Shown one piece after another: positions 14,077 through 35,368 of a stretch of DNA of 49,202 nucleotides. The stretch's first letter is position 1. Each line of letters begins with the position of its first letter. Under the pieces are notes generated by a model. The model was not told the DNA's origin, ran no database searches, and saw nothing but the letters and a program-made list of their open reading frames with translations. Position numbers and translations under genes: made by a program. Source of the stretch: a bacterium (lineage in GTDB: Bacteria > Zhuqueibacterota > Zhuqueibacteria > Oceanimicrobiales > Oceanimicrobiaceae); the NCBI GenBank assembly GCA_046757165.1, contig JBHHXT010000017.1:1-49202 (forward strand). Direction: 5' to 3'.

Positions 14077-14222
14077 GAGGCAGGGTGCGCCGGCATTATC
14101 CGAATTGGAATTGTGAAGTTAATTTTATAAGCTAATATTTTTTCTGCGTATACAGGCATAGTAGATAGGTAACTCCTAATGACCTTTTTTGCAACTTGAA
14201 TCAACCAACTCAGAGTACAGAT

Positions 14223-15347
14223 ATGGAGAATCTAGGATTAAACAAAGATGTGTCGGTCGGTCGGCGCACATTTCATGTCGAGACGAATTTCTTGAATTCC
14301 GCCGGGCTTATTGTTTCCAATACGTTTCTCGATGGTCAGGTGATCGATTCAAAAGAGGTCTCTGTTCGCGCCGGTCTGCCTGATCAGGAAGTCGGCGCTC
14401 TGCTCAACGAAGTGCATCAGCAGACCATCACCGACATGGAGATTCTCTATTACATCGATGAGAAGGTCAAAACCGTTCGGCACGCATCCTCAGCCAACAA
14501 GCTGGGATTACTGTTTTTGCAAAAAAACCTATACCGGGAGTCCATCGAACAATTCAATCTGGCGCTTGAAATCGACCCGGGATTGTCCGAGGTGTTGGCC
14601 AATCTCGGCAAAGCCCTGCTCATGACCGATTCGCTTGATGAGGCGATTGAAGTTTTGGAGCGAGGTACACAGCAAGCTCCGCAGTATGCGGATATTCAAA
14701 ACTACCTGGGCATCGCCTATCTCTACAAAGAAGATTTCGATCCCGCGGTTTTGCACCTGCAAGAAGCGATCAGTCTGAACTCGAACTATATCGGGGCCTA
14801 CTACCATCTTGGCATGGCGCTTCTGGCCAAATCTGTCACGCGGACAGGCACGCCCCAGCCAGGCTCTGAGGAAACGCGGCAGAGAGCCATTGATTACCTG
14901 GCCAAAGCAGCGGAGCGAATGGTGAATCGCCAGATTGCTAATTTCGATGCTGTTATGACCAAAGTCGACAATCAGGCCTATGAAGATGCGGTGAATGAGT
15001 TCTTGCTCAGCAAACCCAAAGAAGTGCTGACCCACTTCCTGGACATAGAAAATGAATTCTACTTGAAATTCATGTATGGGGGCAAAGGCAAGGATGACGC
15101 ATTCATCGCAGAGTATGTCAACAAGCTTCGCGAGTTGATCGCCAAGCATCCGGCCTATGCGGATATCCACAACAACATGGGTATCGCTAACTTGATTCAG
15201 TGCCGCAATCTGTTCTTAAAGGCGCTGGAGGAATTCCGTGCCGCGCTCAAGATCAATCCGAGGTTCAAGAAGGCAGAGAAAAACCTCAAGCTGGCAGAAA
15301 ACGATGGCAAAGGCTTTCTGATCTTGCTGCGAGCGATTCTGAAATAG
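14223..15347 (+). CDS. TPR-repeat protein with a small N-terminal beta-rich domain
   Basis: Multiple TPRs (NKLG, ANLG, PQYADIQNYLG, PAYADIHNNMG); no signal peptide; start 14196 or 14223. Confidence 0.8.
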   Translation: MENLGLNKDVSVGRRTFHVETNFLNSAGLIVSNTFLDGQVIDSKEVSVRAGLPDQEVGALLNEVHQQTITDMEILYYIDEKVKTVRHASSANKLGLLFLQKNLYRESIEQFNLALEIDPGLSEVLANLGKALLMTDSLDEAIEVLERGTQQAPQYADIQNYLGIAYLYKEDFDPAVLHLQEAISLNSNYIGAYYHLGMALLAKSVTRTGTPQPGSEETRQRAIDYLAKAAERMVNRQIANFDAVMTKVDNQAYEDAVNEFLLSKPKEVLTHFLDIENEFYLKFMYGGKGKDDAFIAEYVNKLRELIAKHPAYADIHNNMGIANLIQCRNLFLKALEEFRAALKINPRFKKAEKNLKLAENDGKGFLILLRAILK

Positions 15348-15351
15348 CGTC

Positions 15352-15368
15352 CTGGTATAGTTTTTGCA
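15352..15368 (+). promoter_or_regulatory. sigma-54 (-24/-12) promoter candidate
   Basis: CTGGTATAGTTTTTGCA: GG-N10-GC with TGGYA and TTGCA flanks. Confidence 0.6.
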
Positions 15369-15613
15369 AAAATGAAAGAATTCTTTTCTTGTGACTATAA
15401 CTAGATGGCGCTCGTGTCAAAACATGAAACATAGACAATATCGTGATACACAGACTGCCCCTACTTTAGTTCCTTTTGCGTTCCTGACGTTTACGCTTCT
15501 CCTCTTTGATCCAACACCAATAAATGTCAGCTTTCTTACATTAAATATCAGCAGATAGCATAACAGAGGGAGTTGGGTTCACAAAGATTGCGATCTTTGT
15601 TGCAACATTTTGG

Positions 15614-18600
15614 ATGGACGTTTTGATGATGAATCGGAGAGTCTATTTTCTTGCCGGATTGTTCGTGCTGTTCCTGAGCGCAGCATCCTTTGCCTCTACT
15701 GTGACTCCGGCAAACAGTACGGCCGGGGCGACCACGACGTATACCGTCGACTTTACGTTAACGGCTTTGGACAATCTGCCCGCTGACGGCTCCATAACCA
15801 TTACCTTTGGCAGTCTCGAGTATGATCTAACCGGGACCTTGACGGCAACGTCGCCCGATATCTCAGGCGGGTTCTTGGCGGCCACGCCTGGCGGCGGACA
15901 GTCCGTCACCTTCGTGCGGGACAGCACCGGCGCAGCTCTGCTCGGCGGCAACACGTATACGATTGTCTTTGGCAATGTGACCAATCCAACCACGGCGCAG
16001 TCCTATACGTTGACGGTAACGACCAGCGGCGGAAGCACGGACCCCAGCAGCTCCTACTCGATTACTGCAGACCAGTTGGACCATTTCACTGTTTCCGACC
16101 CCACGCCGTTCACACCAACCGCGGGCGTCAACTTTAGCGTGACGGTAGCGGCTTTCGACCAGTTCAACAACGCCACCGCCTTCAATGGCACGGTCAATTT
16201 GAGCGACAACACCACCACCTTGACGCCGACGAGTGTTGCGATGGCGGGCGTCTCCGTGGATGTGACAAATGCTCGCATCACCAAGGCCCAAAGTGGCGTT
16301 CAAATAACAGCCTCCGAAAGTGGGGGAGCCAGCGGCATATCCAGTGCCTTCACCGTGGATCCTGCGCCGTTGGACCATTTCACGGTCTCGGATCCAACCC
16401 CGGCCACTCCCACCGCGGGAGAAGACTTCACTTTCACGGTGGCGGCGTTTGACGAATTCAACAATGCCAGGACCTTCAGTGGCACGGTGAGCTTGACGGA
16501 TAACACCACGACACTGACACCGACCAGCGTGGCCATGGCCGGGACCTCTGTTTCGATCACCAATGGCCAAATTACGCAAGCGCAATCAGGGATTCAGATT
16601 ACGGCCTCAGAAGCCGGAGGGGCAACGGGAACCTCCAACTCCTTCACGGTGGTGGCTGCAGATATTGCGACCTTTGATTTGAGCGATCCCGGCACGCAGG
16701 AGGCCGGCGTTACCTTCAACGTGACCGTCTCGAACGCCCGCGATAGCTTTGGCAACCTGGCCTCCGGAACGATTGCGATTGATTTCAACGATAGCGATTC
16801 TCATCAGGTGCCAAACGGGGAGTCGCCTGTTTTGGCGGATATCGCGGTCGCCAACGGTTCTGGCACGGAAGCACAGCTTCTGTACTTGCGGGAATCCGGC
16901 GTCGTCTTGCTCGGCACCGTTGCCGCCACCTCTGCTACGGATAGCACACAGCCTTTCAGCGTCAACGCCGGCCTAATTCAAAATTTCTCCTTCCGCGATC
17001 CGGGTGCGCAGACCGCGGGCGTCGGATTCATTCTCACGGTGGAAAATGCCCGGGATGGCTTCAACAATCCTGCTGATGGCACGGTCGAAGTCAGCTTTTT
17101 CGACGCCGGCACCCATATCGCACCTGACGGTACGGCGCCAACCTTGCGAAACATCCTCGTTGGGAATGGATCCGGCAGCAACACGCAGGACTTGTTCCGG
17201 GCGGAAACCGGCCTCCTGCTGAGCGGTTCGGTGACCGCCACCGGGGCGTCGGATGATACACAGGCTTTTGATGTCACCGCCGCTACCCTCGCCGGTTTTA
17301 CGTTAGATACCCCGGGCACCCAAACTGCCGGCACAGAATTTACCCTATCCGTCTCCAACGCGGTTGACGCCTATGAAAATCCGGCGTCGGGGACCGTGCA
17401 GGTGAGCTTTAAAGACCAGCAACCCCATCTTGCGCCAAATCAAATTCCTCCGACGTTGCGGGATATCGCTGTCTCGGCAGGCGCCGGCAGCGCCATGCAA
17501 ACGTTGGTACTGGAGGAAAACAACGTGCAGCTCCGCGGCGACGCCGGCAATAGCGTCATCGACGACACCGGTAATTTCAATGTCACGGCGGGCAATTTGG
17601 CCGCGATTCAGATTCAAGTGGGGACGGCGGCCGGGGATACCACGGCTGTCGGTAACCAGAATCTGACGACGGGCAGCACATTGGCAATGCATGCTTCAGG
17701 GTTTGACATTTATGAGAACCATCGCGGCAGCGAAAGCGTGACCTGGGTGCTTGTTGGTACGAATATTGGCTCTTTGAATCCGGCAAGCGGTCCGAGCACC
17801 ACCTTGACGGCCACCACCCCGGGCACGGCCATTATTCAGGCAACCGAGACGAATTCCGGCCTGATCGATTTTACGGGCGCCATCGAGGTCAGCCTGGGTA
17901 ACGTGGTCAAGATCAGAATTCGCACCGCACCGAATAACGGCGGCAAGGAATTTGGTGACTCGACCCTGACCGCCGACGAAACCATGACTTTTTACGCCGC
18001 CGGCTACGACAACGAGGACAACTATATCAATGATTTCAGTGTTGACTGGCGCTCGCTCGGCGGACTGGAAAACATAAGTGGCAATAGCGGTAGGAGTTTC
18101 ACCTTCAGTCCAACCCTGATCGGGAGCGGACAGATTGTCGCAGACCATACCACTGCGACCGATGACACGACAGGCACGATTACGGTCACGCCTGGTTTGC
18201 CGGCCGGCACGGTGAATCTGACCCCCAGTGCGACGACCTTAGCGCCAACGGATACTTCACGAATAATATCATCACCGATAACCGATTCAGAAGGAAACCT
18301 GGTTGGGCCTGGAAGAGAGTTTGATGTGCAACTGGTCAATGGCCCCTTTGGCACCATCATAACCACGGATGCCAACCCGGGCAAAGCAGGGCATCAAATC
18401 AACACCGATGATAATAGCCAACTGGCTTTTGTTTTTCAAGCCGGAAATGAGGGCGGCACGCAGAATATCGTTGTGAGTAGTGTCGGCGGCGCGACCGGGA
18501 ACACCTCGATCACCATCGGCAGTTTGCGCATTCTCCGGGTTGAGAATGCGCCCGAGTTCGTGAGTCGGGGGCAGAGCGGGGTCACCAACCTTCAGATGAC

Positions 18601-21600
18601 AGTGGAAAATCTCAGTCCGTCATCGGCTACGAACCTGGCTCCTCAGTTGACGTTTAGCGGGGCGGGCCTTAGCTTTCAGCGCAAGGATTCTTTTACGGAC
18701 ATCCCTCCTGCTCCCGGGACACGCACGTTCACGTTTGATGTGGACGTGCTTCCTAATGCTGACTTAGGCTTGGTTACCATTGATGGCCTAATCAACGCGG
18801 AGATCAATAATACGCCTGTCTCTGCTCAAGGGGCTGTGACGCCGGACAGCGTGACCGTCCAGGATACGGCCCGGGTGAGTGTCGTCAGCGTGACAACCAC
18901 GCCGGACACGGTTGTGCAAGGCCGGCCGCCGGTAGATGTTACCGTCAGAGTCTCCAATCCCGCGCCCGCAGGGGTGTCTGCTGCCGCGGTACTCGACAAC
19001 ATCCAGTTGAAATTCACGCTCATAAAGGACGGCAGCGACAAAACCAACGAGTTTGTCGTGGTCGAAAAAGGAGGCATTCCCTCCACCATTGCTGCTGGCG
19101 CGACGGCGGATGTTGGTTTCACGGTCAGCGTGCGTGCCTCAGCAGATAGCGGGCAATACATTCTGGACGCCAACGCGTTTGGTCACGATATTAATTCTTC
19201 CGCCTTGACGATTCGAGACACGGATGGGGCATCGACCACCGATACCTGGTATGTAAAGGGCGCTGCCAGCCTGGAGATTTTGTCTCTGACTCCGATTCCG
19301 CAACCGGCCGTCCGCGCGGAACAGCCTACCGAATGGCGAGTGAGGATGCAGATTGAAAACAGCAGCCCGGACGACATCGACATCGATTTTAACAGTGTCA
19401 ACACCTACGTGAGATTTCGAATCGGAGCAAATGATGTGACCGGGGAGTACACCATCATCAATCCGGACTCTCTGAAGAACGCGGGAACGAATCGCCTGGC
19501 GAGTGGCGCCACAGACACGCTCGATTTCAGAATCGTCCAAACCGGATTCACGACGGGCACGGCGACCATACTGGGCAGTGTCGAAGGGATTGTCGTGGGC
19601 TCCGGCAGTCGCATTTCAGATGACACCAGCGATGACATCGGTCTGGGCTCTGTTCAGATCAACCCGGCCGACGCATCGGTTTTTGTGTTGACCACCAGTC
19701 CGCACACCTCTGTGCCGAATGCTTCTCCAGAAGTTGGGGTTGTGAACACAAACCAGGGTTTTAAGATAACGGTTGTCGTGATCAATGATCTGCCTGAGCC
19801 GGTGGACACGGTGGTTGTCAAGTTGAGCAGCAGCGTCAACAGCGGGGGCTCCACGATTTTGACGCCCCAGGATACGATTGCTTCCATTCCAGCCAATTCT
19901 AGCGGCTCTATCGATTTTGACATCATCGCTGCAGGTACTGCCAATCCTACTCAAGGGGAAACGTTTACGGCAGAGGTCTTGAACGCCACGGGCCAGCACA
20001 GCCGCCAGCCAGCGCCTATCGGTTCGCCGACAGACAACAACGTCCTTTTTCGCATCCAGGATCCCGCTGACTTGGTGGTGTCTTTGAGTATGGATACGGT
20101 TCAAACGGCGAACGATACGTTCGAGGTGTCGGCGACGGTCACGAACCTGGGGCAAGCAGATATCGACAATGCGGGACGTCTGGTGCTGACGGTGCCGGCC
20201 AGTTATCTTCTTGTCCCAGGCTCTGTTAACCCAGCCGCCTTTTCGTTGGACAACCCGGTGACGTGGGAGGTCATCGCTCCTGCCAGTGAAACCGTTAGCG
20301 ATACGTTCATCGTCAATATCAGCCAGGTCCCTAACGATGTCAACATCGCCGGCTTTGCGCAAGTCACGCGGGGCGTTGACTCGGTGCAAATCCGCACCTC
20401 GGACATTGGTCTTGCGATCGACGAGTTTCGAATCGTGTCGCCGGCCGGCGCGTTGGATGATACGCTCTCGAGTGAGCAAGAGTTTGCGGTGCAGGCCAAC
20501 ATCACCCGTACCGCCAGCATCGATTCTGTTCGTGCGACCTTGCAGCCTCCACCCGGCATTTCGCTGGCGCCGGGATTTACGAAGCTGACTAAGAGTTTGG
20601 GACCGGGCGTTACGAGCGCGAGTTGGAACCTGAAGGTCGCCGCAAACCAAACCGGGCAATCGACGCTAACGGTGCAGATGGTCGCCTTTGACCGCGGCGA
20701 AATCGCGGCCCAAACCTCGGCCAATATTGTGATTGAAACGGTCTTGAAGGGAAGGCTCCAGTTTGTTAGCTTCAGGTCAAACTTGCAGGGAAATCGTGCC
20801 TCGGTCAACCAGCAATTTCAACTTACCGCCGAGATCAGGAATTTCGGTGGCGCAGGCGTCACCCCCGGCCGCATTCGTCTAAACCAGGGGAATTCCGGCA
20901 TCATCAATCTGGATGCGGATGAAAGAACGTTTGATCCGGATGAGAATGTCGAGGTCGTTTGGAATGTACGGGCGCCGGCCACCCCAACCGCACGCGCCAC
21001 GATCACGGCGCGAATCGAGGAAATTCCAAAAGACGAGAACTCTGGACAGGAGGCCGCGCCCGCGACCCTCGAGCTGCCCCTTGAAGTCGAGACGGGTGAA
21101 TTTGGCGCCGCCACCATCAACAAGATATCGGTGCTATCCCCTCCGGGCGCTCAGGACGGCGTGATCTCAACCAACCAGCAGCTTACGGTCGAGGCAGAGG
21201 TGGGCTGGAATGATTTGGTGCAATTACAGGCTCAGATTAGCTGGGGGGATGCGGGCTATACCGTCCTGAACGGGACGCGAACCAAGAATATCACCCAGGG
21301 TCCCGTCACGACCGTACAGTGGGAATTGCGGGCCTCGCCAAACGCTGTTACGCAACACCATATCAAGGTCGAGGTGTTTGGAAATGATGCCAGCTCGGGT
21401 CAGCCGGTCAATGCTGTGCCCGATTCGATTCAGTCTACGGTCGTGGAGCGGGCAGACCTGACCCTGGTGGCTTCGATTTCGAGTCCTCCCTCTGCAATCG
21501 ACCGCATATTGACCGTGGGTCAGCAGTTTACCATCACCGCAGAGCTACAAAATACCGGCGCGGCCGGCCTGATTGGCGAAGACAATTTGAGGATCGAGCT

Positions 21601-22627
21601 GCCTCCAAGCTACACCATATCTGAACCCTCGATTAAGAGCGTGGCCCCTGACAATCAGGTGAGCTGGAGCGTCACAGCTCCGGACAATCCGACCAACCAG
21701 GTGGAAGACATCGTCATTTCGGTAGACCAGCAGAACTCAATTGACGAAAATACGGGCGACAACCCCCCTTTCGGGCCGTCGTCGGTCAAGATACCTGTTC
21801 AAACTCAGGCCGTCGGGCTCAATTTGACTCAACTCAATGACAGAAAACCGACCACGATTCCTCGCGGCGCTACGGACCAGCCTATTTTCGGCCTTCGGTT
21901 TGCGAACTCCAGCGATGATGATATCAATTTAGAGCGCATCAACCTGACGGTAGAAGATAACGACGGCAACGAAATCGCTCCGAATGCAGTTTTGTCGGGC
22001 CTGCGCGTGGTCGATTATGACAATTCCTCTGAGGTTTTTGCCACATTGGCCTCGATGCCAGCAAGTAATGCCATGCAGATTGACTTCAATCCCAATGTCA
22101 CGATTGCTGCCGGGCAAAACCGGTCGATTGAATTCCGCGTTGACCTCCTGGCTCAGTCAGATACGCCCAATTTCAGTCTGACGATCAGAGACCCCAACCG
22201 AAATGTCCTGGCAAGAAACACCGCCTCTGACAGCCTGGTGGCGATTCTTGATGAAGCGGGCTTTGAAATTCAAGGAGCGTTGAGTGCAGGCTCATCTGCA
22301 ATCATCGGGTCCGGATTTGCGGCGAGCTTTTTCAATTTCCCGAATCCATTTGGTCAAGGCGAGCAGACCATGTTCAATTACAGTCTGCCGCAAGACTCTC
22401 AGGTCACGCTAAGGATTTATACTTTGCTGGGTGAATTGGTGTGGACGACATCGTTCAGTGCCTCCGACGCTGAGGGCAAAGCTGGAAATCATGATGGTGT
22501 GAGCCTCAAAGCCATCACCTGGGACGGCAAGAACGGCAAGAGCCAGGAGGTTCTCAACGGCGTCTATATCGCTGTTCTGTCAACCGATTCCGATAAAGCG
22601 GTAACAAAAGTCGCAATTGCGAAATAA
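15614..22627 (+). CDS. Giant secreted multi-Ig-like repeat protein with C-terminal FlgD-Ig/T9SS type A-like sorting domain
   Basis: Signal peptide (..LSAASFA|S), T/S/V/G-rich beta repeats, C-terminal FPNPF...LRIYTLLGELV...WDGKN....NGVY.......KVAIAK. Confidence 0.85.
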   Translation: MDVLMMNRRVYFLAGLFVLFLSAASFASTVTPANSTAGATTTYTVDFTLTALDNLPADGSITITFGSLEYDLTGTLTATSPDISGGFLAATPGGGQSVTFVRDSTGAALLGGNTYTIVFGNVTNPTTAQSYTLTVTTSGGSTDPSSSYSITADQLDHFTVSDPTPFTPTAGVNFSVTVAAFDQFNNATAFNGTVNLSDNTTTLTPTSVAMAGVSVDVTNARITKAQSGVQITASESGGASGISSAFTVDPAPLDHFTVSDPTPATPTAGEDFTFTVAAFDEFNNARTFSGTVSLTDNTTTLTPTSVAMAGTSVSITNGQITQAQSGIQITASEAGGATGTSNSFTVVAADIATFDLSDPGTQEAGVTFNVTVSNARDSFGNLASGTIAIDFNDSDSHQVPNGESPVLADIAVANGSGTEAQLLYLRESGVVLLGTVAATSATDSTQPFSVNAGLIQNFSFRDPGAQTAGVGFILTVENARDGFNNPADGTVEVSFFDAGTHIAPDGTAPTLRNILVGNGSGSNTQDLFRAETGLLLSGSVTATGASDDTQAFDVTAATLAGFTLDTPGTQTAGTEFTLSVSNAVDAYENPASGTVQVSFKDQQPHLAPNQIPPTLRDIAVSAGAGSAMQTLVLEENNVQLRGDAGNSVIDDTGNFNVTAGNLAAIQIQVGTAAGDTTAVGNQNLTTGSTLAMHASGFDIYENHRGSESVTWVLVGTNIGSLNPASGPSTTLTATTPGTAIIQATETNSGLIDFTGAIEVSLGNVVKIRIRTAPNNGGKEFGDSTLTADETMTFYAAGYDNEDNYINDFSVDWRSLGGLENISGNSGRSFTFSPTLIGSGQIVADHTTATDDTTGTITVTPGLPAGTVNLTPSATTLAPTDTSRIISSPITDSEGNLVGPGREFDVQLVNGPFGTIITTDANPGKAGHQINTDDNSQLAFVFQAGNEGGTQNIVVSSVGGATGNTSITIGSLRILRVENAPEFVSRGQSGVTNLQMTVENLSPSSATNLAPQLTFSGAGLSFQRKDSFTDIPPAPGTRTFTFDVDVLPNADLGLVTIDGLINAEINNTPVSAQGAVTPDSVTVQDTARVSVVSVTTTPDTVVQGRPPVDVTVRVSNPAPAGVSAAAVLDNIQLKFTLIKDGSDKTNEFVVVEKGGIPSTIAAGATADVGFTVSVRASADSGQYILDANAFGHDINSSALTIRDTDGASTTDTWYVKGAASLEILSLTPIPQPAVRAEQPTEWRVRMQIENSSPDDIDIDFNSVNTYVRFRIGANDVTGEYTIINPDSLKNAGTNRLASGATDTLDFRIVQTGFTTGTATILGSVEGIVVGSGSRISDDTSDDIGLGSVQINPADASVFVLTTSPHTSVPNASPEVGVVNTNQGFKITVVVINDLPEPVDTVVVKLSSSVNSGGSTILTPQDTIASIPANSSGSIDFDIIAAGTANPTQGETFTAEVLNATGQHSRQPAPIGSPTDNNVLFRIQDPADLVVSLSMDTVQTANDTFEVSATVTNLGQADIDNAGRLVLTVPASYLLVPGSVNPAAFSLDNPVTWEVIAPASETVSDTFIVNISQVPNDVNIAGFAQVTRGVDSVQIRTSDIGLAIDEFRIVSPAGALDDTLSSEQEFAVQANITRTASIDSVRATLQPPPGISLAPGFTKLTKSLGPGVTSASWNLKVAANQTGQSTLTVQMVAFDRGEIAAQTSANIVIETVLKGRLQFVSFRSNLQGNRASVNQQFQLTAEIRNFGGAGVTPGRIRLNQGNSGIINLDADERTFDPDENVEVVWNVRAPATPTARATITARIEEIPKDENSGQEAAPATLELPLEVETGEFGAATINKISVLSPPGAQDGVISTNQQLTVEAEVGWNDLVQLQAQISWGDAGYTVLNGTRTKNITQGPVTTVQWELRASPNAVTQHHIKVEVFGNDASSGQPVNAVPDSIQSTVVERADLTLVASISSPPSAIDRILTVGQQFTITAELQNTGAAGLIGEDNLRIELPPSYTISEPSIKSVAPDNQVSWSVTAPDNPTNQVEDIVISVDQQNSIDENTGDNPPFGPSSVKIPVQTQAVGLNLTQLNDRKPTTIPRGATDQPIFGLRFANSSDDDINLERINLTVEDNDGNEIAPNAVLSGLRVVDYDNSSEVFATLASMPASNAMQIDFNPNVTIAAGQNRSIEFRVDLLAQSDTPNFSLTIRDPNRNVLARNTASDSLVAILDEAGFEIQGALSAGSSAIIGSGFAASFFNFPNPFGQGEQTMFNYSLPQDSQVTLRIYTLLGELVWTTSFSASDAEGKAGNHDGVSLKAITWDGKNGKSQEVLNGVYIAVLSTDSDKAVTKVAIAK
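16076..16663 (+). repeat. Two tandem 98-aa (294-nt) intragenic repeats
   Basis: LDHFTVSDPTP...TVAAFD.FNNA...DNTTTLTPTSVAMAG...AQSG.QITASE.GGA.G repeated at 16076 and 16370. Confidence 0.9.
16664..17590 (+). repeat. Three tandem ~104-aa intragenic repeats (second type)
   Basis: PG.Q.AG..F...V.NA.D...N.A.GT..V.F.D...H..P....P.L..I.V..G.G repeated three times. Confidence 0.8.
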
Positions 22628-22635
22628 ACTGCGAT

Positions 22636-24591
22636 ATGACTGTGTTTCGACTCACAAAAGTGTTGACTCTATCGTTTCTGATTTTTATAATATTAGCGTT
22701 GGTCAAGGGCGTGACTGCTCAGCCGGCTGATGGCGGCCGCTCGAGTCTCTTTTCCTCCGCAGGTGTCGGTGCGCGGGCTCTTTCAATGGGGGGCGCTTTT
22801 GTGGCACTTTCTGATGATCCCACTGCTGTCTACTGGAATCCGGCCGGACTCGACTTTATCCAGAAAAAGGGCGCCACGTTCTTTTACTCGAGCTTGAATT
22901 TTGGCACGAGCTACAATTTCATCGCTGGCGTCTGGCCGACGCTCGAGTTTGGAACCGTGGGCATTGGCTGGGCCAGGATTGTAACAGACGGTGTGCAAGC
23001 GCGTGATTCACAAGCGAACCCCATCGGCGCGCCAGGTGATTTTAGCACGGATCAAATCATTTTCTCCTATGCCAAGCAACTCAGGAAGCGCACAGATTCG
23101 CTGAGTGTTGGCGTTAGTTTCAAGATTGAGAAGCTCAACTTCTCGTTTAGCAATCTGTCGGACACAGGGGTGGGCTTCGATTTTGCTCTGCTTTACAAAC
23201 CCGGATTTAGCAGCGGTTTCTTGAGGAATATCTCTTTGGGTGTAAACATTCAAAATGCGCTGACTTCAAAGGTGCGCCTTAGAACCGCGTCCGAATCCTC
23301 CCCGGTCAACTTCAAGGTCGGACTGGCAAAGACGTTTACGATTGGTGAAAACCGTAGCCGCTTTCGGCTGCTGTTTGATCTGAACCAAACAGAGAACGGT
23401 GTCGGGACCTACCATATCGGGACGGAGTACGCATTTCAGGACCGCGCCAACTTGCGCATGGGCTTCAACAGTGGCCAGATAGCTCTCGGCGCCGGCGCCT
23501 CCTATCACAATATCAGAATAGATTACAACTTTGGCAAATTCTTTGATGGGGCGGACTTTGCTTCAAATCATCGCTTTTCGGTGACCATTGCTTTCGGAAA
23601 GGGCAAGACGAGACGCAGGCGGGAGTTGGAAGCTGCGCGCCGGCAAGAAATCCACCTGGCGATCGCGCAAGAACTCTGGATGAAGAAAAAGATTGAATTC
23701 AATACCCACATAGCGAGCGGCAAACGACAATTCAGAAATGTCGACTATCAGGAAGCGTATGTGCAGTTCAAGAGTGCCCGAAGTGTAGCGGACACGTTGG
23801 AGGTGATGTCCAGTGGCTACGACAGAGATCATACCGGAGAGGACCGCGTGCAAATCGCCACGGCTGCGCAAGATACGGCCAGGACGTGGATAGAACGAAC
23901 AGACCGCAAGTGGAAAGAGCAGCGCGATGAGGAGAAGAAGAGACTCTATCGCGAAGAACGCCAGCGAGTTGAAGAGGCCGCAATCAGGAAACTCAATGAC
24001 CTCATCGTCGAGCACAGGGAGAAGGGTGATGGATTCTTCAAGAATGGAGACTATGCCGAAGCAATCAATGAGTGGCAACTTGTTGTCAACGCCATAACAG
24101 AGAGCACGGTCCAGAACCTTCCAGAGAATTTTGCCAACATCAAGAGGCAGGTTAACAAGGACCTGGCGACGGCAAGAAAATACCTCGCAGCCGAGCGACA
24201 AGAACGAGAAAGAAGAGTTCAGCGGCTGAGTTTCGATGACCATTTCAATCGCGGCTTGCGGGATTATGCGAGCAAGGATTGGGAGCGTGCCGCTGCTGCC
24301 TTTAAAAAAGCGTTGGACATCAATCGAAATCATGCCGATGCAAGGAAATGGTATGACAAAGCTTATGCGCGCTCCCGAGCGACGGTGAAGCAGATGCCGC
24401 AGCAACTGCGGGCAAAATACGCCCGCTCAGTGGCATTGTACAGGCAAGGCAAATATGCAGAATCTTTGGACCTGCTAATGGAAATCCGGGATGATAAACG
24501 TTACAAAGAGCAGCGTTATAACAAGCGAATCCTGGATCGCATTGATCTGGTCGAAGAAAAAATAGCTCAGAAGAAAAGGCGAAACCAATAA
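22636..24591 (+). CDS. PorV/PorQ-family outer-membrane beta-barrel with C-terminal coiled-coil/TPR extension
   Basis: Signal peptide, GARALSMGGAFVALSDDPTAVYWNPAGL signature, barrel ends HRFSVTIAF, then about 330 aa charged helical TPR-like region. Confidence 0.8.
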   Translation: MTVFRLTKVLTLSFLIFIILALVKGVTAQPADGGRSSLFSSAGVGARALSMGGAFVALSDDPTAVYWNPAGLDFIQKKGATFFYSSLNFGTSYNFIAGVWPTLEFGTVGIGWARIVTDGVQARDSQANPIGAPGDFSTDQIIFSYAKQLRKRTDSLSVGVSFKIEKLNFSFSNLSDTGVGFDFALLYKPGFSSGFLRNISLGVNIQNALTSKVRLRTASESSPVNFKVGLAKTFTIGENRSRFRLLFDLNQTENGVGTYHIGTEYAFQDRANLRMGFNSGQIALGAGASYHNIRIDYNFGKFFDGADFASNHRFSVTIAFGKGKTRRRRELEAARRQEIHLAIAQELWMKKKIEFNTHIASGKRQFRNVDYQEAYVQFKSARSVADTLEVMSSGYDRDHTGEDRVQIATAAQDTARTWIERTDRKWKEQRDEEKKRLYREERQRVEEAAIRKLNDLIVEHREKGDGFFKNGDYAEAINEWQLVVNAITESTVQNLPENFANIKRQVNKDLATARKYLAAERQERERRVQRLSFDDHFNRGLRDYASKDWERAAAAFKKALDINRNHADARKWYDKAYARSRATVKQMPQQLRAKYARSVALYRQGKYAESLDLLMEIRDDKRYKEQRYNKRILDRIDLVEEKIAQKKRRNQ

Positions 24592-24604
24592 TCCAGGCGC
24601 TAAA

Positions 24605-27600
24605 TTGTTCACAAACGTCGAAAAACAACAACTAAAAGTTCCTGCGCATATAGACTATCTGGGCGACCTTCGCGACTTCGTCACGCAGATAGGCAAGAAA
24701 CACAGGTTCTCAGACAAAGTCGTCAACGCCTTTAAGCTCGCGGTTGATGAGGCGGCAACCAACATCATTCGCCATGCCTACCGGGATACGGACGGCTTGA
24801 TAACCATTCGAGCCATTGTCAAGAAGAATAGTCTGACTTTGTCGATCATCGACCAGGGTAAGTATTTCGATCCGAATCGGGTAGAGAATCCAGACCTCAA
24901 CCGCTACATCGATATCGGCAAGAAAGGAGGCCTGGGGATCTTTATCATGCGCAAGCTCATGGACGAGATCGAGTACAGCAGAACCGAGGAAGGCAACGAG
25001 CTGCGCATTACAAAATATCGCGATCAAGCCGAAAAGAAAGGAATCTTCAAGTCCGCCGTTTCTTCCATTCCTTTTTCGATCAAAGTCAAGTACTTTTTCC
25101 GCGCCATTGCCATCATTGCAACGCTCATAACCGTTGGCTATCTTTATTTTTTTTTCAAGGTAGATGAGAAGGTATTGTCGAAGTTTTTGTATGACTGCGA
25201 GGAAATCAACGCGAGCATTGTCACCCGAGTCATCTCCACGGTCAGCTTGAATCCTGATGAGCCCCTGGATGATGAGTTTTTCACCACCCTGGAAGAACAG
25301 TACGCGGAGATTCGTAAGATAGCCATTGAAGACTCGACCTCATATATCATCTATAGTACCGATACAAACGAATATGTTCGGGGTTTGTTCAGACCGGCCA
25401 AGATCGAAGTGGTCCGGAATCGTTTTCTTGGCGCCGGCGCCAAACTGTACAGATATAAGCTGAACAACGAGACGGTTTACGAATTCGAGAGCCCAATAGT
25501 GATCCGGCCTGGTAGACAGATCTTTGGCACGGCTCATATCGTTTTCACAGCGGTTTCTGCAGAAAGCCAAATTGCTGTGAGTCGACGCAGCAATCTAAAT
25601 CTTGCGTTGCTCATCCTCGGCCTGAGCTGCGTGGGTGTCGCCCTCATCATCTACCTGGTCATGAATCCTTTCCGTAAGCTCTCGGATTGGGTCAGGAACC
25701 TTGACCACGGACAAATCGAAGATGAGATGGATATTGACGCCTCCACCGAGATTGGGGAAATTGCCAAGGCGTTCAGCGATATCACCCACAAATTTCGGGA
25801 TTCACAAAAGAGGGTCGCTCAACAGGATCGGTTGGAGCGCGAGATGCGCGTGGCCAAGGATATTCAGCAAACCCTGTTGCCGATGTCGGTGCCAGAACTG
25901 GAAGGCTACCAGATTTCCGCGCATTATGAGGCGGCGACAGAAGTGGGCGGTGACTACTATGACTTTGTTGAAGTCGACCAGGACACGTGGGGAATCGCTG
26001 TCGCCGATGTTTCCGGCAAGGGTGTCCCGGGTTCGATGGTCATGACCATGATTCGGACCGTGCTGCGCACCGAGGCTCGTGGCGTGAAGGACGCGGCGGA
26101 TGTGCTCACGCGCGTCAATGATTTTGTCAGTAATGATATTAAAAAGGGCATGTTTGTCACGGTCTTCTACCTGATTATTGATTCGAAGAAGCGGAGCCTC
26201 AATTTTGCCAGTGCCGGCCACAACCCGATGATTCTGCGACGTGGCAGTACCAACCAAACCTACTACCTCAACCCGAAGGGATTTCCGATCGGTGTGAAGC
26301 TTCCGGACAAGGACTATTTCAAGAATTATATTGAATCAGAGACCATTCGGCTTGCCAAGGACGATATCTTACTGCTCTATACAGATGGAATTACAGAGGC
26401 GATGAACTCGAGGCGTGCGCTGTTTGGGGAAGAGCGTCTGCAGAAGGTCATGAGTGACTCCGGCCACTTGTCTGCAGAGGATTTCGTTGAGAGTCTGAAG
26501 GAAACTATTTACTCGTTCACCGAGGGTCAGCCCCAGTCCGACGATATCACTTTGGTGGCGATCAAGGAAAAGTCGACGCGTGAGGAAGACGAGCTCCGAA
26601 GGGCAAAGGAGGTCCATAGTCTCGTCTGCAATGGCCGGAGCGTTCGGGACGCGTGCCAGGAGGTGAATCTTGCAGTGTCGACTTACTATAACAAATACAA
26701 GAAAGTCTTTGAAGCGCAAGGAACAGATGGTTTCGAAATTGACGAAGTGGCTTCTGTCGAGTCGAAGCACCTGAGTATTGAGCAGAAGACCAGGATTTTT
26801 GACGTCATTGCCCATCATCCGGAGTACGGCGCCGGCAGAATCAAGGAAGAGCTCAATACCAAAAGGTATGACTTTACGGTCATCAGCGAAAGGAAGGTCT
26901 ATGAGGAGCTTGTTCGCAATCGATTGAATACACGGGCTTTACGTGAAGCTTATATCAATCGTGCCAGGAAGGGCAAGCGACGACCCAAGCCACCAGGCAC
27001 ACCGTATCTGACACTCCACGGTGAGATCGTGGTGCAGCATTCGAATATTGAGGATTACACCGCCGAAGAAGAGACGAAGGCACCGGAGTCGGGAGCGGGT
27101 GCTGAGGCGGGTCCGGCCGGGCGAACCGATGATGAACGCAGCGAGTCCATTGAAGTCGACAGTGTGATAATCACAGAGTTTGAGTCCGAGTCCCTGATAC
27201 ACAACCCTCTGGACGAAACCCTGTCCAATCCGCTGGCAACGGATCAAGATAAGAAAGATTCATCCGAAGATAATAGAGATGGGATCTCTGGTGGCCCCTC
27301 CGGAGCCGAGCCTGAAGTCGTGGTACCTAAAGCCGGAATCGAGGTCGGTGAGCATGACCCCGAGGCCACTTCCGACGATGTACCCTTTGAGGCGTTAGAG
27401 GCCATCGAGGGAACTTCCCTATTAGAGGACTTTACATTTGAAGAGCTGTTTGACAGCGGCTCGCAGATGGCTGATGAGGATGATTTCGACGAGGGCTCGG
27501 ACGAGGGTCAAGGCTCGAGCGTTGAATCGCAAGCGACCACCGCCTTCGATGCAGACGTCGAAGCACAAGCCGAGACACATGTAGAAGATGAGTCGCAGTC

Positions 27601-28375
27601 TCCTCCTGAGGTTCAGGAACAGGCGGGTCAATCGCAGCCGCAGGCGAGCGCTTCAGAATGCTCAGAAGTTAGCGCAGCAGATTCAGACGTTGCCGCGTTC
27701 TCCGTTGAGGAGCTGGTAGATCGAGATCGGGAGTCAGATTCCGAAAAGCAAGGAGACTTTGTACAAGCGACGGCCGAAGAGGGGCCCGACCTGCGCCGTC
27801 CACACGTGGCAGATGAGGATGAGGACACCGTATCTTTCTCGGACTTGATTCAAGCGATCGACGATGAAATCGTTTATGTAAGCAAACCTGCTCGTCAGCA
27901 AGATAAAGTCGCAGTGGAGTCCCGTGAGTTAAGCCCGTCAGCCGGGAAGCCGAAGCCGTTAGATGGGGATGAAGAGCCCTATTTCCATAAAAGCGAGCCA
28001 GGCGCAAATGGGGACCAGGACAAAGAGACGATATTGATTAACGGAATTAAGTATTACAAGAACAACGATTACGCCAAAGCGATCGAAGAGTTTAAGAAGG
28101 TGATCGATGTTTATCCCGACTATAAGGAGGCTCACAGCATCTTAGGAAACGCCTATTTTAGAAATAGAATGTACAATGAAGCGGCCCTTGAATATCAAAG
28201 GGTGAAGGAAATCGATCCCAACGACATCACGGCTTATGAGAATATGGGCGTGATTTATGCGAATCTCGGCGACTATAAACAAGCTCTGGGAGAGTGGAAA
28301 AAGGTGATGGAACTCAATCCGGATCGGATGGACATCAAGGATAAGATTAAGAAAGCCCTGAGAATGATAAATTGA
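24605..28375 (+). CDS. Membrane fusion: RsbW-type anti-sigma kinase, 2 TM sensor, HAMP, SpoIIE/PP2C phosphatase, HTH, acidic linker, TPR
   Basis: EAATNIIRHAY, DQG, GGLGIFIM (HATPase); two TMs; EIGEIAKAF (HAMP); EVGGDYYD, ADVSGKG, YTDGITE, DDIT (PP2C); C-terminal TPRs. Confidence 0.85.
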   Translation: MFTNVEKQQLKVPAHIDYLGDLRDFVTQIGKKHRFSDKVVNAFKLAVDEAATNIIRHAYRDTDGLITIRAIVKKNSLTLSIIDQGKYFDPNRVENPDLNRYIDIGKKGGLGIFIMRKLMDEIEYSRTEEGNELRITKYRDQAEKKGIFKSAVSSIPFSIKVKYFFRAIAIIATLITVGYLYFFFKVDEKVLSKFLYDCEEINASIVTRVISTVSLNPDEPLDDEFFTTLEEQYAEIRKIAIEDSTSYIIYSTDTNEYVRGLFRPAKIEVVRNRFLGAGAKLYRYKLNNETVYEFESPIVIRPGRQIFGTAHIVFTAVSAESQIAVSRRSNLNLALLILGLSCVGVALIIYLVMNPFRKLSDWVRNLDHGQIEDEMDIDASTEIGEIAKAFSDITHKFRDSQKRVAQQDRLEREMRVAKDIQQTLLPMSVPELEGYQISAHYEAATEVGGDYYDFVEVDQDTWGIAVADVSGKGVPGSMVMTMIRTVLRTEARGVKDAADVLTRVNDFVSNDIKKGMFVTVFYLIIDSKKRSLNFASAGHNPMILRRGSTNQTYYLNPKGFPIGVKLPDKDYFKNYIESETIRLAKDDILLLYTDGITEAMNSRRALFGEERLQKVMSDSGHLSAEDFVESLKETIYSFTEGQPQSDDITLVAIKEKSTREEDELRRAKEVHSLVCNGRSVRDACQEVNLAVSTYYNKYKKVFEAQGTDGFEIDEVASVESKHLSIEQKTRIFDVIAHHPEYGAGRIKEELNTKRYDFTVISERKVYEELVRNRLNTRALREAYINRARKGKRRPKPPGTPYLTLHGEIVVQHSNIEDYTAEEETKAPESGAGAEAGPAGRTDDERSESIEVDSVIITEFESESLIHNPLDETLSNPLATDQDKKDSSEDNRDGISGGPSGAEPEVVVPKAGIEVGEHDPEATSDDVPFEALEAIEGTSLLEDFTFEELFDSGSQMADEDDFDEGSDEGQGSSVESQATTAFDADVEAQAETHVEDESQSPPEVQEQAGQSQPQASASECSEVSAADSDVAAFSVEELVDRDRESDSEKQGDFVQATAEEGPDLRRPHVADEDEDTVSFSDLIQAIDDEIVYVSKPARQQDKVAVESRELSPSAGKPKPLDGDEEPYFHKSEPGANGDQDKETILINGIKYYKNNDYAKAIEEFKKVIDVYPDYKEAHSILGNAYFRNRMYNEAALEYQRVKEIDPNDITAYENMGVIYANLGDYKQALGEWKKVMELNPDRMDIKDKIKKALRMIN

Positions 28376-28409
28376 GAGTCTTCCGAATAGACAAAAGATT
28401 TACTTTCTA

Positions 28410-28438
28410 TTGACTTTTTTGCGATTTTCTATTATATT
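28410..28438 (+). promoter_or_regulatory. sigma70-type promoter upstream of the STAS gene
   Basis: TTGACT-17 nt-TATATT; AGGAG RBS before ATG 28485. Confidence 0.65.
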
Positions 28439-28484
28439 ACAATCTATTATATCTAATTTCTCATCAATAGGTTAGGAGTAATCC

Positions 28485-29186
28485 ATGGAAGGCATACATG
28501 TGTCTGTGGAAAAAGTTGGTCCGAATCAGAATATTTCGGTCATCAAAGTGGGAGGCTACATTGACACCACGACCTCTGCGGAACTAGAGCATGCGCTATC
28601 GAACCTTCTGAAGGCTCATAGTTATAGAATCATTATCGACCTGGGAAACGTCGATTATATTAGCAGCGCTGGCTGGGGTATTTTCATCAGTGAAATAAAG
28701 GGGATTCGTGAGAAAGCGGGGGACCTGAAATTGGTCCGCATGATCCCCGATGTGTATGAGGTATTTGAACTGCTGGAATTTCATTATATTCTCAAGGCTT
28801 TTGACACCCTGGAGGAAGCGATTGCTGATTTCGACAGCGAGAGTGCAGGCTCGGGGGTCGCGTTACCTCCCTACGAATCTGAACAGACTGGCGACGAAAA
28901 GTCTGCTGCCACTTCTCAGGAGGTTAAGACTGACGTCGCGCAGGTGGAGACGCGTTATGAGCCCTCATCAGATGATGCGTATCTGGAGACGATCGAAGAA
29001 AAACTGCGCCAGATCATTATTGAGAAGCCGGACGCAGGGATGTTCCAGTTGATCAGGAGTCTGAATACACCTCGGTTCGGCAACCTGAAGTTGGGCTGGT
29101 TTGAAATGCGCAAGTATTTGAAGCAGTTGAACCTGGAGTCAAAAAAGAAACGGGTTGAGTATTTCAAGCAGAATACTTTTGGTTGA
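28485..29186 (+). CDS. STAS anti-sigma factor antagonist with C-terminal HTH-like domain
   Basis: VGGYIDTTT, IIIDLGNVDYISSAGWG (phosphoacceptor Ser motif), VYEVFELL; about 120-aa extension. Confidence 0.88.
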   Translation: MEGIHVSVEKVGPNQNISVIKVGGYIDTTTSAELEHALSNLLKAHSYRIIIDLGNVDYISSAGWGIFISEIKGIREKAGDLKLVRMIPDVYEVFELLEFHYILKAFDTLEEAIADFDSESAGSGVALPPYESEQTGDEKSAATSQEVKTDVAQVETRYEPSSDDAYLETIEEKLRQIIIEKPDAGMFQLIRSLNTPRFGNLKLGWFEMRKYLKQLNLESKKKRVEYFKQNTFG

Positions 29187-29276: not shown

Positions 29277-29323
29277 GTCGTCGCTTGGCTTAGCTAGCCA
29301 GGCCAGCGTTGAATTCCATCATT

Positions 29324-30304
29324 ATGTTTGTCGATCGTGCAAAAATTCGCATCAGAGCCGGAAACGGTGGCAGCGGCTGTGTGAGTTTCCGACGTGAAAA
29401 ATATGTTGCCAAGGGCGGCCCTAACGGCGGCGACGGGGGCAATGGCGGAGATGTTGTGCTTGTCGCAGATACGAACTTGGCGACTCTCCTGGACTTCAAG
29501 TATCGGCCCAATTTCAAAGCAGAGCGCGCTGATCACGGCAAAGGCAGCAACATGCATGGCAGAAACGGTAAGCGCCTGTACCTCAGGGTGCCCCCAGGCA
29601 CCGTTGTCAAAGATGTGGACACGGGCGAGATTTTGGGCGAGATTATGGAGGCGAAGCAAGCGCTGGTCGTGGCGAAAGGGGGTCGCGGTGGCCGCGGCAA
29701 CGCACGGTTCGTCAGTTCAACGAACCGCGCCCCGCGCGAGTGGGAGCAGGGAGAGTTGGGCGAGGAAAAGACACTTGAACTAGAACTCAAGTTGATTGCC
29801 GATGTCGGTTTGGTTGGGTTGCCGAATGCAGGTAAATCCACTTTGATCTCGAAATTGTCAGCCGCCAGACCCAAGATCGCAGACTATCCGTTCACGACGC
29901 TGACCCCAAATCTTGGCATCGTGCAGTACCGGGATTTCAACAGCTTTGTGGTGGCAGATATTCCGGGCTTGATCGAAGGCGCGCATTTGGGCAGGGGGTT
30001 GGGGCATGAGTTTCTCAGACACATCGAGCGCACCAAGGTCTTGATTCTGTTGATTGACAGCACGAGCGACAACTACTCCCAGACCTATACCCTCCTGGTC
30101 GAAGAGTTGCGCCAATTCAACCCCGCGTTGCCGGAAAGAATTGCAATTGTGGCATTGACCAAGATAGACCTTCAGTCGGATGAGACGATTGAACTGGATG
30201 GCCTGTTCGATAGAAAGGTTTGCAGGATCTCGAGTGTCACAGGCGAGGGTCTGACTGAGCTCAAGGATTTGGTTTGGCAACATCTACAAGAAGCTATATT
30301 CTGA
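29324..30304 (+). CDS. obgE: GTPase ObgE/CgtA
   Basis: MFVDRAKI, GGPNGGDGGNGG, GLPNAGKST, DIPG, TKID. Confidence 0.97.
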   Translation: MFVDRAKIRIRAGNGGSGCVSFRREKYVAKGGPNGGDGGNGGDVVLVADTNLATLLDFKYRPNFKAERADHGKGSNMHGRNGKRLYLRVPPGTVVKDVDTGEILGEIMEAKQALVVAKGGRGGRGNARFVSSTNRAPREWEQGELGEEKTLELELKLIADVGLVGLPNAGKSTLISKLSAARPKIADYPFTTLTPNLGIVQYRDFNSFVVADIPGLIEGAHLGRGLGHEFLRHIERTKVLILLIDSTSDNYSQTYTLLVEELRQFNPALPERIAIVALTKIDLQSDETIELDGLFDRKVCRISSVTGEGLTELKDLVWQHLQEAIF

Positions 30305-30305
30305 A

Positions 30306-31409: not shown

Positions 31410-31410
31410 G

Positions 31411-31439
31411 TTGACTTGTAGACCATTTTTTACTATATT
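31411..31439 (+). promoter_or_regulatory. sigma70-type promoter for the tRNA-Ser pair
   Basis: TTGACT-17 nt-TATATT. Confidence 0.7.
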
Positions 31440-31460
31440 TTTGAGCTTTTTCCCGAAGAC

Positions 31461-31544
31461 GGAGGGCTAGTCCTAATTGGTAAGGCAGCGGTCTTGAAAA
31501 CCGCCGGGTTCACGCCCTTGGGGGTTCGAGTCCCTCGCCCTCCG
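31461..31544 (+). tRNA. tRNA-Ser(TGA)
   Basis: GGAGGGC/GCCCTCC acceptor stem, anticodon arm GCGGT-CTTGAAA-ACCGC, long variable arm, GGTTCGAGTCC; CCA not encoded. Confidence 0.95.
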
Positions 31545-31584
31545 CTTGAGAATTGAGTCCTGATTTTCGACCATAGTTGTTTAC

Positions 31585-31671
31585 GGAGAGGTGGCCGAGC
31601 GGCTGAAGGCACAGGTTTGCTAAACCTGCGTAGGGGCAACTCTACCGAGGGTTCGAATCCCTCCCTCTCCG
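31585..31671 (+). tRNA. tRNA-Ser(GCT)
   Basis: GGAGAGG/CCTCTCC acceptor stem, CAGGT-TTGCTAA-ACCTG, long variable arm, GGTTCGAATCC. Confidence 0.95.
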
Positions 31672-35367: not shown

Positions 35368-35368
35368 G

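Follow-up and report, generated by a model that had tools for sequence, protein, structure and literature searches.

A PorV-family barrel with a tetratricopeptide repeat tail encoded beside a serine kinase/phosphatase fusion in Zhuqueibacterota: a candidate envelope-spanning switch

The four-gene locus and its products

A block of four genes in a member of the family Oceanimicrobiaceae (Zhuqueibacterota, or KSB1; assembly GCA_046757165.1) codes for a giant secreted repeat protein, an outer-membrane barrel of the PorV/PorQ family with a C-terminal tetratricopeptide repeat (TPR) tail, a serine kinase/phosphatase fusion protein and a STAS protein (Table 1). The host genome is 6.09 Mb in size and 99.98% complete, and the stretch analysed here, referred to as the window, comprises the 49,202 nucleotides (nt) at positions 1 to 49,202 of contig JBHHXT010000017.1. 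All four open reading frames (ORFs) lie on the + strand and are separated by gaps of 8, 13 and 109 nt. A preliminary description of this DNA, made from its letters, had proposed the block as a trans-envelope signalling system; the ORF list reproduces its four genes and their spacing, and profile scans show nearly all of its domain calls to be real. Its statement that the locus holds no sigma factor is likewise borne out, as sigma-factor families did not turn up among the 33 window ORFs scanned.

Table 1. Genes, domains and signals in and around the four-gene block, in window coordinates (aa, amino acids; HTH, helix-turn-helix)
Feature	Position	Strand	Remarks
TPR protein gene, possible fifth gene	14196..15347	+	383 aa; no signal peptide, cytoplasmic; TPR family matches
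Sigma-54-like -24/-12 motif TGGTATAGTTTTTGCA	15353..15368	+	2 mismatches to TGGCACN5TTGCW
Giant secreted repeat protein gene	15614..22627	+	2337 aa
C-terminal sorting domain (type IX secretion type A / FlgD-Ig-like)	22334..22624	+	giant protein aa 2241-2337
Barrel-TPR protein gene	22636..24591	+	651 aa
PorV/PorQ-family outer-membrane barrel	22756..23595	+	aa 41-320 of 651-aa protein; NF033709
TPR tail of the barrel protein	23599..24588	+	aa 322-651; about eight repeats; predicted periplasmic
Kinase/phosphatase fusion gene	24605..28375	+	1256 aa; TTG start
RsbW/SpoIIAB-type serine kinase domain	24641..25015	+	fusion aa 13-137
Periplasmic sensor domain, predicted single Cache/PDC fold	25163..25588	+	fusion aa 187-328 (142 aa)
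SpoIIE-type PP2C serine phosphatase domain	25979..26566	+	fusion aa 459-654; preceded by the HAMP match
Transposase-type HTH-like region	26594..26995	+	fusion aa 664-797; strongly conserved
Acidic low-complexity linker	27020..28009	+	fusion aa 806-1135; 91 D+E versus 19 K+R in 330 aa; not conserved
C-terminal cytoplasmic TPR domain	28040..28336	+	fusion aa 1146-1244; several Pfam TPR models above cut-off; conserved in KSB1
STAS protein gene	28485..29186	+	233 aa
STAS domain	28524..28820	+	aa 14-112 of 233-aa protein; motif DYISSAGWG
Four-helix HTH-like domain	28980..29171	+	STAS protein aa 166-229; behind a disordered linker

The barrel domain of the second protein matches the PorV/PorQ family model NF033709 with 123.6 bits (cut-off 90), the whole-genome scan giving the same place, and is preceded by a signal-like segment at aa 1-32. 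A profile of 47 barrel orthologues matches the solved PorV structure 6h3i_F (E 1e-18), and the ESM Atlas provides a lead in the same direction, with template modelling (TM) scores of 0.75-0.85 by target for the barrel model against PorV/PorQ clusters. The tail is net basic (75 K+R versus 55 D+E) and present in all aligned orthologues; it scores above the cut-off of Pfam TPR_2, and its profile (47 orthologues) matches consensus TPR proteins in eight stretches (E 2e-59). The earlier reading of this protein as a PorV-like barrel followed by a ~330-aa TPR tail is therefore upheld. As both ends of a FadL/PorV-type barrel face the periplasm, the tail is taken to be periplasmic. Atlas clusters with a barrel plus TPR are labelled from several phyla, which serves as a further lead.

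The kinase domain of the fusion protein matches HATPase_c_2 with 102 bits, above the cut-off, and RsbW models match it as well. Residues E49, N53, D83, G85 and G108-G111, which are presumably those of the N, G1 and G2 boxes of a GHKL kinase, are invariant in 47 orthologues from four phylum-level groups. The phosphatase domain matches SpoIIE with 170.6 bits, again above the cut-off, and D450, D453, D468, S470-G473, D594, G595, D646 and D647 are invariant over the same set of orthologues, where D450, D453, D468, D594, D646 and D647 are taken here to be the metal-binding aspartates of PP2C. Because the kinase-box residues and the PP2C aspartates are invariant, the kinase and phosphatase activities of the fusion are probably both intact.

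Hydrophobic segments at approximately aa 163-186 and at aa 329-356 bracket the sensor domain, on which no Pfam family, Cache included, was found by sequence. Its AlphaFold2 (AF2) model, with a predicted local distance difference test score (pLDDT) of 92.6 and a predicted TM score of 0.87, combines a mixed sheet with a long helix at the N-terminus and another helix at the C-terminus. The best matches in the PDB, as ranked by Foldseek, are to the extracellular domain of WalK/YycG (E 1.7e-5 to 7e-4, TM approximately 0.6), the top-ranked entry being a WalK-YycH model, and lower-ranked matches include KinD, CitA, DctB, LuxQ and the periplasmic domain of Chlamydia RsbU. The model thus suggests a WalK-like single Cache/PDC domain. 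Of the RsbW-sensor-HAMP-PP2C order put forward in the preliminary description, the kinase, the sensor and the PP2C domain stand, while the HAMP match at aa 348-390 reaches 22.2 bits and remains just below its cut-off of 25. No match to a receiver domain was found in the fusion, which has two membrane segments, the Cache-like domain and the HAMP-like linker in its place. To the region behind the phosphatase, the N-terminal models of the IS481 and IS3 transposases match with E-values of 2e-7 and 3e-6, far below their cut-offs (30.7 bits versus 224 for IS481), and Pfam HTH_32 (E 7e-4, 20.5 bits versus 33.7) and HTH_21 (16 bits versus 28.1) match in the same manner.

Proteins that run from kinase to PP2C in this way appear to constitute a sizeable family, because about 90 of the best 150 clusters at 50% identity align end to end with aa 1-657 of the fusion. 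There are about 18 SpoIIE genes in the genome. A gene at G000:C6:187-5967 (= L108, - strand) codes for a 1926-aa paralogue of the fusion with the same kinase-HAMP-PP2C order and a long TPR-rich C-terminus; it has a YqeC-like gene, and no PorV-family gene, upstream and is present in many members of the same family.

The STAS domain of the fourth protein scores 62.4 bits in Pfam, and its AF2 model resembles SpoIIAA and RsbV as solved in complex with their kinases (TM score by target 0.87). Both S60 and S61 in its motif are invariant in 42 aligned sequences, and one of the two is assumed, from alignment with the family, to be the target serine at the SpoIIAA/RsbV-type position. A linker (aa 123-162, pLDDT below 50) leads to a C-terminal domain predicted with a pLDDT of approximately 90, on which no Pfam family was found. 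This domain is homologous to aa 721-786 of the fusion (hhalign 95.7%, E 1e-8), suggesting that the STAS protein and the fusion carry the same transposase-type HTH-like module. Of the HTH modules that had been noted in both cytoplasmic components, the shared domain is thus supported, and the designation HTH expresses a likeness. The genome also encodes, at G000:C7:31470-32180 (= L109:7471-8181, - strand), a full-length STAS paralogue (40% identity) that has the same C-terminal domain. Its gene lies between a gene for a GT5-type glycosyltransferase and genes for Poly_export/Wzz-type exopolysaccharide export, and the paralogue was found in every relative searched.

The giant protein and type IX secretion

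The giant protein begins with a hydrophobic signal-like segment (aa 3-31) and comprises a variable N-terminal part of immunoglobulin (Ig)-like repeats and a conserved C-terminal part of 600-900 aa, for which orthologues align in all KSB1 loci with sufficient flank. Apart from CARDB, which lies exactly at its cut-off, the repeats have no Pfam matches, and no PDB relatives of the protein were found by sequence. The C-terminal sorting domain (CTD) matches TIGR04183 at aa 2242-2334 with 25.8 bits (cut-off 23) and a custom profile from 46 CTDs of the same genome with E 2e-12, in agreement with the type IX secretion system (T9SS)/FlgD-Ig-type CTD reported earlier; as a lead only, Atlas features of this domain point to FlgD_ig, CARDB and Por_Secre_tail clusters. 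The protein thus has both the CTD above the cut-off and the N-terminal signal of T9SS type A cargo.

The translocon SprA (771 bits summed, cut-off 200) and the sortase PorU (843.8 bits, cut-off 420) are encoded in the genome, as are 129 crude ORFs that end in a T9SS-type CTD. Of the PorK/L/M/N-type motor, the part searched for was GldM, whose model has no match in the genome but is uninformative, as it has none in any control genome either. PorV binds type A CTDs, and PorP/SprF-like proteins are encoded beside cargo with type B CTDs. There are about 18 PorV-family genes in the genome, and a CTD gene lies directly upstream of six of these 18, against an expectation of about 0.5. In several cases (e.g. 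on contigs C49, C72 and C119) a PorV-family gene comes after two genes for proteins of approximately 1000-1200 aa each, which may be another recurrent cargo-barrel layout.

Conservation of gene order within the phylum

Orthologues of the barrel-tail protein and the fusion are encoded by adjacent, co-oriented genes in 54 of 60 relatives, which represent 12 families. For the remaining six, the search either missed at least one of the two orthologues or placed the fusion match at or near a contig end: a contig edge is shown in G010, G020 and G059 and assumed for G016 and G024, and neither orthologue was found in G001. The STAS gene follows the pair at the same places in the relatives. Upstream flanks of 7 kb or more are available for 61 of the 80 loci retrieved with STAS orthologues, and the order giant protein, barrel, fusion, STAS is kept in all 61. 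Where the upstream flank is 300-7000 nt, the fusion is seen in 14 of 17 loci; two of the remaining three are too short, and the third is L081. The four-gene order is also kept in 9/9 loci from other classes of the phylum. Across the 167 genomes of the phylum, the STAS orthologue (E<=1e-60) is found in 152 and the fusion orthologue (E<=1e-90) in 155. G046 and G049 have two barrel-fusion pairs each.

The gene order of this chromosome region as a whole is unusually stable across KSB1. In one genus (L081:1-3654), genes for a phosphoesterase, an uracil phosphoribosyltransferase and a peptidyl-prolyl isomerase stand ahead of the extended STAS gene, and the fusion is encoded elsewhere in the genome. 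In a contig of a KSB1 metagenome-assembled genome (L069:1-5361), the barrel-tail protein and the fusion form one open frame of at least 1786 aa, which lacks the last ~45 tail residues together with the stop codon and spacer and continues directly into the kinase domain. As an outer-membrane barrel and inner-membrane segments in one protein would be odd, this frame is probably an assembly error or a deletion.

Conservation of gene order across phyla

Outside the phylum, a fusion orthologue is encoded in four of the 94 genomes sampled, and in all four a PorV-family gene lies directly upstream of it. Three of these upstream genes score above the family cut-off, and the fourth reaches 85.7 bits against 90. 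The flanks of the pair differ: G248 has a giant gene (3534 aa) and an extended STAS gene, G226 a gene for HflX, and G240 genes for RNase R and HisD. The pair in G185 is flanked by a gene for an 813-aa protein with an FlgD-like end, a short STAS gene and a gene for a SiaD-like diguanylate cyclase (GGDEF). The last of these, at L106:17480-19093, comes after the barrel, the fusion and the short STAS gene, and its position suggests cyclic di-GMP as the output of the module in G185.

Of the 41 genomes in the phylum of G248, 40 have the fusion, 39 the barrel-tail protein and 40 the extended STAS protein. The barrel and fusion genes lie side by side in 38/41 and a STAS gene follows in 39/41, while G289 lacks the fusion, the barrel-tail protein and the STAS protein together. 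A CTD-bearing protein of at least 4700 aa is encoded upstream in all six loci checked in this phylum, the last 460-1000 aa of which align with the giant protein of the window (23-29% identity, E 1e-23 to 1e-40). In the phylum of G185, all 31 genomes have the fusion, and 28 of 30 loci show the barrel-tail gene immediately before it. In that of G226 the fusion is found in 18 of 20 genomes, with the barrel-tail gene directly upstream in 18/18 loci.

The conservation of gene order that the preliminary description had named as a check is thus observed, with barrel and fusion adjacent in four phylum-level groups. Its refuting condition, a gene order that is not kept and a partner switch mostly unlinked from the PorV/giant-protein pair, clearly does not apply. 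Because the flanking genes are unrelated, this cross-phylum adjacency is stronger evidence than the synteny within KSB1. The invariant core is the pair of barrel-TPR protein and fusion, and the giant and STAS genes are its usual, but not obligatory, neighbours. The earlier interpretation holds in part. The giant and STAS genes accompany the pair in two of the four groups, and the giant gene falls outside the invariant core.

Transcription signals and flanking genes

The sigma-54-like promoter that had been placed ahead of the block is not supported. Matches to this motif in the window are not above chance (22 found versus 28 expected), a motif like TGGTATAGTTTTTGCA is present in two of seven orthologous upstream regions, and the candidate at 15353-15368 was rejected on these grounds. 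A consensus scan detected no terminator-like sites in the three gaps or after the STAS gene, and in the 109-nt gap before the latter it placed a sigma-70-like site (TTGACT-17 nt-TATATT, 10/12 positions) at 28410-28438. The STAS gene may thus possess a promoter of its own. Promoters and terminators were scanned for as consensus matches only, and the promoter type of the host phylum may differ.

The TPR gene upstream of the block may be a fifth member of the module. Fifteen loci were judged to have approximately 1 kb or more of flank before the giant gene; 12 of them have a homologue of the TPR gene (tblastn E<=1e-15) at this position, and L104, a locus from another phylum, is among these 12. 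Further downstream in the window (34340-38112), a gene for an OMP_b-brl_2 barrel (316 aa) lies directly upstream of a gene for a membrane HAMP-PP2C protein (893 aa) with no kinase. This pair was considered as a parallel case and rejected, since the barrel has no match in the other loci and the pair is not conserved.

A possible envelope-spanning switch

The four genes may work as one envelope-spanning switch, in which the tail would pass the state of the barrel on to the sensor and thereby determine how far the STAS protein is phosphorylated, a reading to which a probability of roughly 0.5 is assigned. The giant protein would be bound to the barrel by its CTD, in the way that type A CTDs are bound by PorV. 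The state of the barrel, probably its load of giant protein, would travel along the TPR tail, which is predicted to be periplasmic, to the Cache sensor; judging by the anatomy of the two proteins, the tail would reach this sensor across the periplasm. The fusion would then phosphorylate and dephosphorylate the STAS serine, as SypE does with SypA. As output with no sigma factor, the STAS protein may act via the transposase-type HTH-like domain that it shares with the fusion. The likeliest output would be a direct one on DNA, as in CapS, because no sigma factor was found and the STAS protein has an HTH-like domain of its own. The locus offers no sigma factor for the kinase to hold, and the module, as far as the locus shows, resembles a partner switch in its working but not a sigma-regulating one.

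The distribution of one component to each compartment of the envelope, on which the preliminary description had built, is supported by the predicted signal and transmembrane segments, with which the fold predictions agree. Cache-type domains that are governed by protein partners exist, as in WalK with YycH/I and LuxQ with LuxP, and WalK and LuxQ entries are both among the fold matches of the sensor. A bolder version of this reading can be formulated, in which the barrel would signal the load of, or strain on, the giant adhesin along the periplasm-spanning TPR arm to the Cache domain of a bifunctional kinase/phosphatase, with no intermediary. The STAS protein would here be a DNA-binding regulator built on a domesticated transposase HTH, and the sigma-free switch would be nearly universal in at least four phyla and native to T9SS-bearing phyla. 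This version is tentative and, on balance, doubtful.

A number of observations weigh against an envelope-spanning switch. The sensor is the least conserved part of the fusion, with a mean pairwise identity of 19.5% and no invariant column, and Cache domains usually bind small ligands. The barrel is classed as a PorV-family paralogue and not as PorV proper, because it scores 36.4 bits against the cut-off of 250 of the PorV equivalog NF033710 and because a stronger member of the family (306 bits) is encoded elsewhere in the genome. The HTH assignment is based on matches below curated cut-offs and denotes a resemblance only. Co-orientation of the four genes carries little weight, as almost all genes between 102 and 40432 are on the + strand. 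Synteny within KSB1 taken alone is a weak marker of a functional unit, because obg, dprA and gltX (window 29309-33267) are also kept downstream, in 69, 59 and 33 KSB1 loci, respectively. L081 is a true exception to this synteny, its STAS gene having no fusion upstream. No giant gene stands beside the pair in G226 and G240, and no STAS gene was found in the 1.5-kb downstream flank in the 18 loci of the phylum of G226. Finally, while the distance matrices of tail and sensor correlate in a mirror-tree comparison (Pearson 0.80; partial r 0.75 given PP2C; 0/999 permutations as high), the Spearman coefficient is 0.36, below those for tail and HTH-like region (0.54) and for tail and cytoplasmic TPR domain (0.62). 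The mirror-tree was rejected as evidence for a link between tail and sensor, since the Pearson coefficient depends on a small number of close pairs in two regions that evolve fast.

Control may also run from the inside outwards, which is possible, though unlikely. The kinase/phosphatase and the STAS protein would then sense a periplasmic or cytoplasmic cue and control how the giant protein, or other surface material such as exopolysaccharide, is secreted, anchored or released, with barrel and tail as the controlled device and not the sensor. A biofilm matrix is under the control of SypE and SypA, with no sigma factor, in the available text of PMC10120452. The extended-STAS paralogue of the same genome lies within an exopolysaccharide export locus, which fits a role in surface control; the SiaD-like diguanylate cyclase comes after the module in G185, and a gene order with the cargo first and the regulators behind would fit autoregulation. 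The fusion has, however, the layout of an outside-in receptor, with an extracytoplasmic sensor between membrane segments followed by a HAMP-like linker, the module contains no enzyme acting on cargo, such as a protease or sortase, and the barrel-fusion pair is also kept in genomes that have no giant gene beside it. The occurrence of the pair with no giant gene, which is seen in two lineages, would suit a ligand relay, in which the barrel admits or binds a small, perhaps hydrophobic molecule, the tail merely docks the barrel near the Cache sensor and the giant protein is a neighbour with no signalling role. Cache/PDC domains commonly bind small ligands, and CitA, DctB, KinD and Chlamydia RsbU are among the fold matches. 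The available text of PMC8407342 describes FadL-like 14-stranded barrels, a group to which the PorV family is here taken to belong. The best fold matches of the sensor, on the other hand, are to WalK, with the WalK-YycH model as the top entry. WalK is controlled by accessory proteins and is not known to have an accepted small ligand. No invariant sensor residue marks a shared ligand pocket, in two entire phyla the barrel gene comes after that of a giant CTD protein, and CTD genes are enriched upstream of PorV-family genes in the genome, all of which makes such a relay quite improbable.

That the genes are neighbours only, in a slowly rearranging and perhaps co-transcribed block of the chromosome where the barrel/giant pair and the partner switch are functionally separate, would agree with the retention of obg, dprA and gltX downstream in most KSB1 loci and with the uniform orientation of the whole 102-40432 region. 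With ~18 PorV-family and ~18 SpoIIE genes, a single chance adjacency would, moreover, be no rarity (rough estimate ~0.1). This explanation is nonetheless very improbable, as two orthologous genes are adjacent in four phylum-level groups with different flanks, the pair has been duplicated as a pair in G046 and G049, and all three genes are absent together in G289.

The envelope-spanning switch, if the tail indeed contacts the sensor, would be a new kind of trans-envelope pathway, and the module is likely an undescribed route by which information passes between the cell surface and the interior. It bears on surface sensing in T9SS bacteria, on the roles of the many PorV-family paralogues and on the TPR tails of FadL/PorV-type barrels. 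The barrel is tied by gene order in four phylum-level groups to a well-understood enzyme pair whose activity can be read as STAS phosphorylation, which makes the proposal testable. If the STAS-HTH protein binds DNA, sigma-free partner switching would be widespread, beside the recently described CapK/CapS. Since nearly all genomes of KSB1 and of a second phylum have it, the module is probably central to the surface biology of both.

Comparison with known systems

In the literature searched, no paper was found that joins "PorV" with "partner-switching" or "KSB1" with "type IX secretion", and the main text of the Zhuqueibacterota paper PMC11683472, as available, does not mention secretion, PorV, STAS, adhesin, gliding or sigma. 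The earlier statement that no system with this layout has been described accordingly stands for the literature searched, which has no PorV-family barrel-TPR protein wired to a bifunctional partner-switch enzyme.

The fusion can be compared with SypE of Vibrio fischeri, in which an N-terminal RsbW-type kinase and a C-terminal PP2C domain on one chain both act on the STAS protein SypA, with no sigma target and with a link to surface material (PMC10120452, available text). The N-terminal kinase and the PP2C domain on the same chain are found here as well, while the central receiver domain is not: SypE has a cytoplasmic receiver domain between the enzymes, and the fusion a membrane segment, the Cache domain, a second membrane segment and the HAMP-like linker. 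SypA is furthermore a bare 105-aa STAS protein, where the STAS domain here is followed by a linker and an HTH-like domain, and SypE has no known outer-membrane partner, whereas the fusion is paired with the barrel-TPR protein. In its STAS component the module resembles CapK/CapS, in which a GHKL/RsbW-like kinase phosphorylates a STAS protein with a C-terminal (winged) HTH that is a direct transcription factor, again with no sigma factor; CapS is a STAS-wHTH repressor that is released by phosphorylation (PMC13373217, available text). The CapK/CapS loci, however, precede immune operons in the same text, and the C-terminal domain here is of the IS481/IS3 transposase type, the two systems being compared by description.

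Membrane proteins with a sensor-HAMP-PP2C order that control a phospho-switch protein are also found in SiaABCD of Pseudomonas aeruginosa and in Chlamydia RsbU. In both the kinase is a separate protein, in contrast to the fusion described here, and no outer-membrane partner has been described for them. SiaA matches the fusion with only 63 bits (cut-off 700), and the output encoded in the window is not a cyclase, while the cyclase at the end of the module in G185 recalls SiaABCD. As for the outer membrane, a CTD cargo gene directly before a PorV/PorQ-family barrel gene, in a genome that has SprA and PorU, is reminiscent of T9SS cargo with its outer-membrane partner (PorV; PorP/SprF). Canonical PorV has no TPR tail, whereas the barrel here has one of ~330 aa, scores 36 against 250 in NF033710 and has a signalling enzyme as its partner.

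Signalling from an outer-membrane barrel occurs in FecA-FecR-FecI, and TPR-barrel exporters are represented by BcsC, PgaA and PelB. The module resembles these in the periplasmic extension of a barrel towards an inner-membrane partner and in the TPR arrays that bridge the periplasm. It differs in having no TonB box, anti-sigma factor or extracytoplasmic function (ECF) sigma factor, in having a serine kinase/phosphatase at the inner membrane where the others have a sigma regulator or a synthase, and in that the TPR array is C-terminal to the barrel. A likeness to the barrel-TPR protein itself is seen in Treponema pallidum, where three of five FadL-like barrels have a presumptively periplasmic, helical C-terminal tail with a TPR motif, to which the available text of PMC8407342 assigns no function. 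All parts of the module thus come from known families, and what appears new against the literature searched is the pairing of a barrel-TPR protein of the PorV family with a bifunctional enzyme of partner switching.

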